From positions 136,853 to 200,852 of the forward strand of contig CAWATZ010000006.1 of assembly GCA_963784995.1 (NCBI GenBank): a DNA stretch of 64,000 bases. The letters are read 5' to 3'. Made by a program: the position numbers and the translations under genes. Of this stretch, positions 35,310-35,438 are shown piece by piece. This stretch comes from an uncultured Planctomycetota bacterium. Lineage in GTDB: Bacteria > Planctomycetota > Planctomycetia > Gemmatales > Gemmataceae. Each line of letters opens with the position of its first letter. Position 1 is the first letter of the stretch. A model generated the notes under the pieces. It was not told the DNA's origin and ran no database searches. It worked only from the letters and a program-made list of their open reading frames with translations.

Positions 35310-35438
35310 CCCGAATACCCTGGCAGGTGGCTGGCAGAGAGGAAAATGACGCCCTGTGGCATTCCTCCGTCAGCGACAGGCTCCTTCGGGCCTCTGAGCC
35401 AACCTTGAAGGAAATGGCAGGTTGGCTGGCAGGCTGCC
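35310..35438. repeat. conserved roughly 125-nt element, family 2 (core cccgaataccctggcaggtggctggcag..aaaa.gacgccct.tggcattcctccgtc), immediately upstream (5') of the 34580..35281 gene; second copy at 60576..60698
   Basis: About 65 nt are near-identical between copies. Both end with a ttggc(a/t)ggctggcagg segment that repeats the internal ctggcagg. Confidence 0.8.

Follow-up and report, generated by a model that had tools for sequence, protein, structure and literature searches.

Two intergenic spacers in the window (the whole stretch of DNA analysed here, 64 kb long) contain closely similar segments of about 120 bp, each of which precedes a minus-strand gene. The original prediction, made from the sequence, offered three candidates for this pair, namely a cis-regulatory RNA leader, a shared operator or a MITE carrying an outward promoter. 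The question raised by the locus is whether the shared sequence is a regulatory element of the genes that it precedes, and if so whether it acts as RNA or as DNA, or whether it is a dispersed repeat that has come to lie beside them. The answer that we tentatively favour, at a little under an even chance, is a lineage-restricted, non-coding dispersed repeat that entered the spacers secondarily, with a conserved half that resembles a protein-binding DNA module more than an RNA.

Results

The repeat has two sharply bounded copies

Comparison by blastn gave 82.2% identity between copies A and B over 118 nt (E = 6e-24), and a repeat search of the window returned the same two segments as a two-copy family (81% over 120 nt). 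They are direct repeats, both read on the plus strand, and lie 25,267 nt apart (Table 1). Similarity sets in abruptly at CCCG and stops at CTGGCAGG, and the flanks of the two copies are unrelated. The copies had been predicted at 35310..35438 and 60576..60698, and both are present with ends within a few nt of these positions. The shared blocks that had been described are equally real: the window has exactly two occurrences of the 28-mer CCCGAATACCCTGGCAGGTGGCTGGCAG and two of the block GACGCCCT[G/C]TGGCATTCCTCCGTC, and 100 shuffles gave none. The common end ttggc(a/t)ggctggcagg proposed for both copies is inexact for copy A, which ends ...tggcaggttggctggcagg; the last two of the short boxes described below are 5 nt apart in copy A and 1 nt apart in copy B. 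A profile search of the 64-kb window with the filters off (nhmmer --max) found no third copy at E<1. Furthermore, a contig of the same organism in Logan (L061, 936 nt) is 99.9% identical across copy B.

Table 1. Positions of the repeat, its internal features and the neighbouring promoter-like sites in the window
Feature	Position	Strand	Basis or remark
Copy A of repeat	35310-35433		82% identity with copy B; similarity sharply bounded at CCCGAATACC and CTGGCAGG
Copy B of repeat	60577-60696		blastn and repeat-finding; two-copy family with copy A
Better-conserved 62-nt half, copy A	35310-35371		5 mismatches to copy B; holds the 28-nt exact block
Better-conserved 62-nt half, copy B	60577-60638		Alignment to copy A
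Box pair CCTGGCAGG-TGG-CTGGCAG, copy A	35319-35337	+	Two odd-length palindromes, 11-bp period
Same box pair, copy B	60586-60604	+	Sequence match to copy A pair
Box 3 (TGGCATT)	35357 (copy A); 60624 (copy B)		25 nt beyond box pair
Boxes 4 and 5	35415, 35427 (copy A); 60682, 60690 (copy B)		~94 nt from box 1
Weak terminator-like hairpin, copy A	35339-35362	-	AUGCC-ACAG-GGCGU then CAUUUUCCUC
Weak terminator-like hairpin, copy B	60606-60629	-	AUGCC-AGAG-GGCGU then CACUUUUCUG
Putative promoter-like TTGCGG-N18-TAGCGT	35492-35521	-	Loose consensus match; outside repeat, upstream of copy A
Putative promoter-like TTGCCC-N17-TACGAT	60436-60464	-	Conserved in L062 as TTGCCT-N17-TACGAT; outside repeat, downstream of copy B
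Window segment without counterpart in L062/L063	60515-60743		229 nt: copy B plus ~45 and ~60 nt of flank

The 25 substitutions between the copies are distributed over the three codon phases as 10/8/7. Because these mismatches show no 3-periodicity the repeat is non-coding, and a protein-coding repeat is ruled out. Five ORF translations of both copies, aligned and searched against 5.8 billion proteins, returned nothing at E≤10. On the minus strand, at 35362 and 60629, a GGAGGA-ATG of the element opens a frame reading MP[Q/E]GV[I/T]FL[S/P]ASHLPGYSG..., which is stop-free and in frame to the start codon of the downstream gene (27 codons in copy A, 73 in copy B). This frame is probably a coincidence, since its ATG lies only 1 nt past GGAGG and the orthologue has no such extension.

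Searches outside the window gave no homologue of the repeat. An exact 18-mer gave 60 hits in 185,579 GTDB species genomes (one per species), all of them chance or low-complexity matches; one is a tandem repeat of 66 nt from a Botrimarina MAG. In metagenomes a 22-mer gave no hits, and the spaced pattern TGGCAGG-N4-TGGCAG-N18-20-TGGCATT gave 23, all by chance. No homologue was seen in viral contigs (two scans) or, by blastn, in plasmids and phages, and the literature on repeats in Gemmata or Planctomycetes yielded nothing relevant.

The window contains other repeats as well. Three tandem units of ~3.0-3.4 kb, 60-85% identical, occupy 39.7-49 kb and encode large transporter-type and polysaccharide-export-domain proteins, and a separate array with a period of 144-177 nt lies inside a 490-aa ORF at 51.0-52.4 kb. 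A second dispersed family, 71 nt long and 89% identical between its copies at 11413-11483 and 56171-56241, has as its core a ~23-bp perfect inverted repeat (TTCGATTTATCGTTTCGCGTTCG...) and looks like a REP-, MITE- or terminator-type sequence. Since the window holds this second, palindromic repeat, the genome does carry small dispersed elements.

Genomic setting of the two copies

Copy A lies inside a 289-nt divergent spacer between gene 34580-35281 (minus strand) and a plus-strand gene that begins at 35571, 28 nt upstream of ATG 35281 and 137 nt from GTG 35571. Copy B lies inside a 338-nt spacer between an 80-aa gene (60749-60991, minus strand) and gene 59823-60410 (minus strand), 52 nt past the stop of the former and 166 nt before ATG 60410. 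The gaps to the gene starts had been put at 27 and about 165 nt, in good agreement with these measurements, and the intergenic placement and common orientation to a downstream minus-strand gene are indeed found for both copies. With only two copies, a common orientation is expected 50% of the time by chance and carries no weight.

The two downstream genes are mutually unrelated and neither matched a Pfam or NCBIfam family; gene 59823-60410 encodes a predicted membrane protein. The 80-aa gene comes after an arsC-like (LMWPc) gene. The best named homologues of a neighbouring gene are from Gemmataceae MAGs, and the G+C content of the window is uniform at ~65%.

Several features of the surroundings are recorded here in their own right. 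Gene 34580-35281 is the first of three tandem paralogous genes (33527-35281, minus strand), each opening MTEA[D/E]W. When read to their stops, the first two have a terminal cysteine-rich motif, RLPVLADALE[D/E]AGC...GCW.VDLL, and no region tested in the array matched Pfam or NCBIfam. Next to copy B, outside the shared repeat and downstream on the minus strand, is an 11-bp hairpin (60540-60570, GAGUUGGCGGA-CGUCU-UCCGCCAGCUU) that may terminate transcription of the arsC-like/80-aa operon.

On the other side of copy A, the plus-strand gene 35571-36854 has a frame broken by a single in-frame TGA at 35877-35879 (..ALQRC-TGA-GGAAAMRAS..), in a thioredoxin-like-looking context. Approximately 20 nt past this TGA is a stem-loop with 7 predicted pairs, the 8-nt arms GAGAGCGA and TCGCTCTC being complementary. 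Among the matches listed, most homologues are called at ~319 aa. The gene maps of all three relatives (3/3) show a short ORF ending 15 nt upstream, and hence the TGA stop appears to be conserved in each. The gene is a candidate for a selenocysteine (C-U motif) protein family in Gemmataceae and Planctomycetota.

Copy B is missing from the equivalent spacer of a relative

Two JGI metagenome contigs, L062 and L063, encode a homologue (P0002) that is 75% identical to the protein encoded downstream of copy B. Gene order in these contigs is as in the window, the 80-aa gene being followed by P0002, with a spacer of 108 nt compared with 338 nt. In the alignment the ends of both genes are conserved, as are the 70 nt that precede the ATG, with the promoter-like site and the ribosome-binding site among them, and copy B is missing from the syntenic spacer together with some flanking sequence, a presence/absence polymorphism. 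A profile search found no trace of the element in L062 or L063, or in a 21-kb contig of a more distant relative. The ribosome-binding site before ATG 60410 is AAGGAG, and reads AAGGAG or GAGGAG across the alignment of the window with the relative. As judged from these contigs, a relative can do without the element upstream of this gene.

We found three promoter-like matches in these spacers, compared with ~0.24 expected from base composition by our own estimate. No sigma-70-type promoter was found inside the element. Since copy B is located upstream of the conserved promoter-like site at its locus, it is probably not in the leader of gene 59823-60410. At locus A there is a sole minus-strand match and, if real, it would make copy A part of the 5′ leader of gene 34580-35281. 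The two copies thus differ in position with respect to the likely promoters, which argues against a leader function common to both.

Conserved boxes and uneven divergence

Divergence between the copies is unevenly distributed along the element, with 5 mismatches in the 62 nt of the first half (plus strand) and 18 in the 58 nt of the rest (Fisher p=0.002). Alternatively, this pattern could reflect gene conversion over part of the element, or bad alignment of the diverged half. The spacing of boxes 1-4 is the same in both copies, and box 5 is offset by 4 nt. Seven of the 19 TGGCAGG words in the window fall within the two copies (250 nt), and in the rest of the window neither CTGGCAG nor TGGCAGG is enriched, the words occurring there at chance frequency. 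The ctggcagg segments had been thought able to form a stem. They are direct, not inverted, repeats, and the only pairing that they allow is through the odd-length CTGGCAG palindrome, with the central base mismatched.

A neutral segmental duplication that happened once in intergenic DNA, functionless and immobile, would account for the existence of only two known copies, for the lack of mobility hallmarks and for the lack of homologues elsewhere. The uneven divergence is not what such a duplication would predict, however, and it would be unusual for exactly one short stretch between genes to be duplicated, with clean ends, into another such stretch 25 kb off. Furthermore, two copies in a single 64-kb window may point to more of them genome-wide. 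We consider a neutral duplication unlikely, although it keeps an appreciable share of the probability.

The same boxes could constitute a shared operator or upstream activating site, at which one regulator bound to phased CTGGCAG boxes would co-regulate both minus-strand genes. The box pair, with its 11-bp period, and the third box, at conserved spacing, are in the best-conserved half of an element that lies upstream of a gene start in each case, an arrangement consistent with this proposal. To this extent the operator suggested in the original prediction holds up, in that there are phased palindromic boxes in the conserved half, but no other gene of the window has a box pair (none occurs elsewhere in the 64 kb) and no regulator was identified. 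The distances to the start codons are also far apart (28 versus 166 nt), the orthologous gene manages without the element, ~60 further nt are shared that an operator would not need, and no functional link between the downstream genes is known. We regard co-regulation through a shared operator as rather improbable.

No clear sign of RNA structure in the repeat

A search of Rfam 15 gave no family for the repeat at gathering thresholds and only noise at E≤10, for both loci, which rules out a described RNA family. Whether taken at full length or as halves, and on both strands, the repeat folds no better than dinucleotide shuffles (z -1.3 to +1.2), so that the fold calculations give no stability signal. 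In a separate part of the window, at 2231-2275 on the minus strand, Rfam reports a hit to Acido-Lenti-1 RNA above the gathering score (40.1 bits, E=1.3e-5).

These results bear on a model in which the repeat is a minus-strand cis-acting RNA, working through a small hairpin and U-run or through a larger fold. At copy A such an RNA would serve gene 34580-35281 as a leader or attenuator, and at copy B it would follow the arsC-like/80-aa genes as an intercistronic or 3′ element. The orientation to minus-strand genes is common to both copies, and both have a weak AUGCC-NNNN-GGCGU hairpin followed by a U-run, with a stem of 5 bp including one G-U, in which they differ solely in the loop. The promoter-like site upstream of copy A would put that copy in a leader, and when the two minus-strand sequences are folded to a consensus, one 7-bp helix continues to pair through two double changes. 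This helix, however, is a CU-rich/GA-rich (polypyrimidine/polypurine) tract that can slip into many registers, and with n=2 sequences it has no statistical power; we give it no weight. The best-conserved 28 nt lie outside the small hairpin, and another small hairpin is better on the opposite strand.

Collectively, the lack of an Rfam match, fold energies that do not beat shuffles, the absence of the element upstream of the copy-B gene's orthologue and the location of copy B upstream of a conserved promoter-like site disfavour the cis-regulatory leader that had been one of the candidates. An RNA function of any of these kinds seems to us slightly more doubtful than the operator.

A sigma-54-like motif on the plus strand

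Read in the other direction, the repeat could be a sigma-54 promoter cassette with CTGGCAGG-TGGC-TGGCA as its -24/-12 elements, which would drive rightward transcription of gene 35571 from copy A and transcription antisense to the 80-aa/arsC-like genes from copy B. In TGGCAGGTGGCTGGCA of both copies GG-N10-GC is intact and 12 of the 15 consensus positions are matched, the motif falls within the most conserved block, and the organism appears to use canonical sites, for example CTGGCACGGCAGTTGCA at 58226-58208 on the minus strand. The -12 element, however, is GGCA rather than TGCA. Copy A does have gene 35571 ahead of it, but this gene has its own promoter-like site nearer its start, and what copy B has ahead of it is no co-oriented gene but the 3′ end of a convergent one. 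We identified neither an enhancer-binding protein nor an upstream activator site. We give the sigma-54 cassette a low probability.

The textbook site at 58208-58226 lies ~85 nt upstream of ATG 58123, which opens a small membrane-protein ORF and is followed by a HlyD-family gene (56264-57805).

Finally, the direct orientation, the spacing of 25,267 nt and the 28-nt exact core in common would be explained if the copies were attL/attR-type sites on either side of an integrated element of 25 kb, but this explanation is very improbable and largely refuted. In L062/L063 the 80-aa gene and the gene downstream of copy B are neighbours although the repeat is missing, so that their adjacency across copy B is ancestral. 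Genes for an integrase, a recombinase, phage functions or conjugation are lacking in the interval, neither copy abuts a tRNA gene (the sole ARAGORN call, tRNA-Gly at 41255-41349, is far from both) and the GC content is uniform. The Pfam matches between the copies are to transporter-type (ABC, MFS), polysaccharide-export, HlyD and PDZ domains, and several ORFs there have no match.

Discussion

A lineage-restricted dispersed repeat is the reading that we prefer, and several lines of evidence support it. The repeat is real and sharp-edged and sits amid unrelated genes, with boxes 1-4 co-positioned in the two copies and with uneven divergence along its length. The spacer of L062/L063 is without the element, yet keeps the promoter-like site and the ribosome-binding site. 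No relatives appeared in any of the genome, metagenome, viral, plasmid, phage and protein searches. Against a dispersed repeat are the facts that only two copies are known, that terminal inverted repeats (TIRs), a target-site duplication (TSD) and an associated transposase are lacking, and that CTGGCAG is not enriched elsewhere.

According to the model that we propose, an element of ~120 bp would reach intergenic DNA secondarily, either as a small non-autonomous insertion or by ectopic duplication, and would not be a gene-specific regulatory leader of ancestral origin. We infer the secondary acquisition rather than observe it, because the indel at locus B could also be a deletion in the relative and not a gain of the element. 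Any activity of the repeat would most likely be exerted at the DNA level by way of the better-conserved 62-bp half. Two CTGGCAG palindromes one helical turn apart, together with a TGGCA box at fixed spacing, have the layout of a protein-binding site, from which we infer that this half may bind a protein; candidate binders would be a transposase, a recombinase or a regulator.

The suggestion that the repeat is a MITE with an outward promoter is borne out in part. A dispersed, secondarily acquired character fits, but the element has no TIRs, TSD or internal sigma-70-type promoter. The two 40-nt ends share no inverted match longer than 5 nt; the flanks of copy B have no direct match of ≥5 nt, and those of copy A share a 5-mer at unequal offsets only. 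The absence of TIRs and TSD rules out a classical MITE.

A bolder version of our preferred reading is that the dispersed repeat represents an undescribed Gemmataceae family of small mobile DNA elements, without TIRs or TSD, which moves a binding-site or sigma-54-type promoter module made up of phased CTGGCAG boxes. We assign this version only a small likelihood. If it were true, the expression of unrelated genes would be rewired as the module moves between intergenic regions. Small intergenic repeats are as such a known kind of sequence, and in Planctomycetes small dispersed repeats are almost undescribed; a family with a transferable binding-site or promoter module would mark genome plasticity and possible regulatory change. 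For annotators, the main message is that this sequence should not be taken as a conserved leader RNA.

Comparison with known systems

MITEs such as Correia/NEMIS resemble the repeat in being small and non-coding, in being missing at the orthologous site of a relative and in their potential to affect the expression of neighbouring genes. They differ from it in that the repeat described here has no TIRs, no TSD and no known parent insertion sequence.

REP/BIME sequences (GTAG- or CGTC-tagged) are likewise intergenic repeats with short palindromic units. REPs are stem-loops of 20-40 bp with stems of 8-9 bp and a terminal tetranucleotide tag (PMC3733652). By this definition (PMC3733652) the sequences and folds of the two copies show no REP-type tagged stem-loop, so a REP unit is ruled out; the repeat has instead odd-length palindromic boxes of 7-9 bp, arranged as direct repeats within a 120-bp unit.

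In common with sigma-54 promoters, TGGCAGG-N4-TGGCA keeps GG-N10-GC and most of the consensus. Unlike them, it has a deviant -12 element, copy B is without a downstream gene on the same strand, and no activator site was found.

The ends of Tn7-, Mu- or Tn402-type elements carry several directly repeated transposase-binding sites. No transposase, second inverted end or target duplication was found here, in contrast to such elements; from general knowledge of them, the likeness lies in several same-strand boxes within ~120 bp and in a sharp, best-conserved terminus.

ERIC sequences are imperfect palindromes that form a long hairpin and have tens to hundreds of copies, oriented either way, whereas this repeat has no long palindrome, no stable fold and two known copies (in the 64-kb window). 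What it shares with ERIC/IRU and BOX elements is a length of ~120 bp, a non-coding nature, an intergenic location by unrelated genes, restriction to a lineage, divergence between copies and short boxes that are reiterated within the unit.
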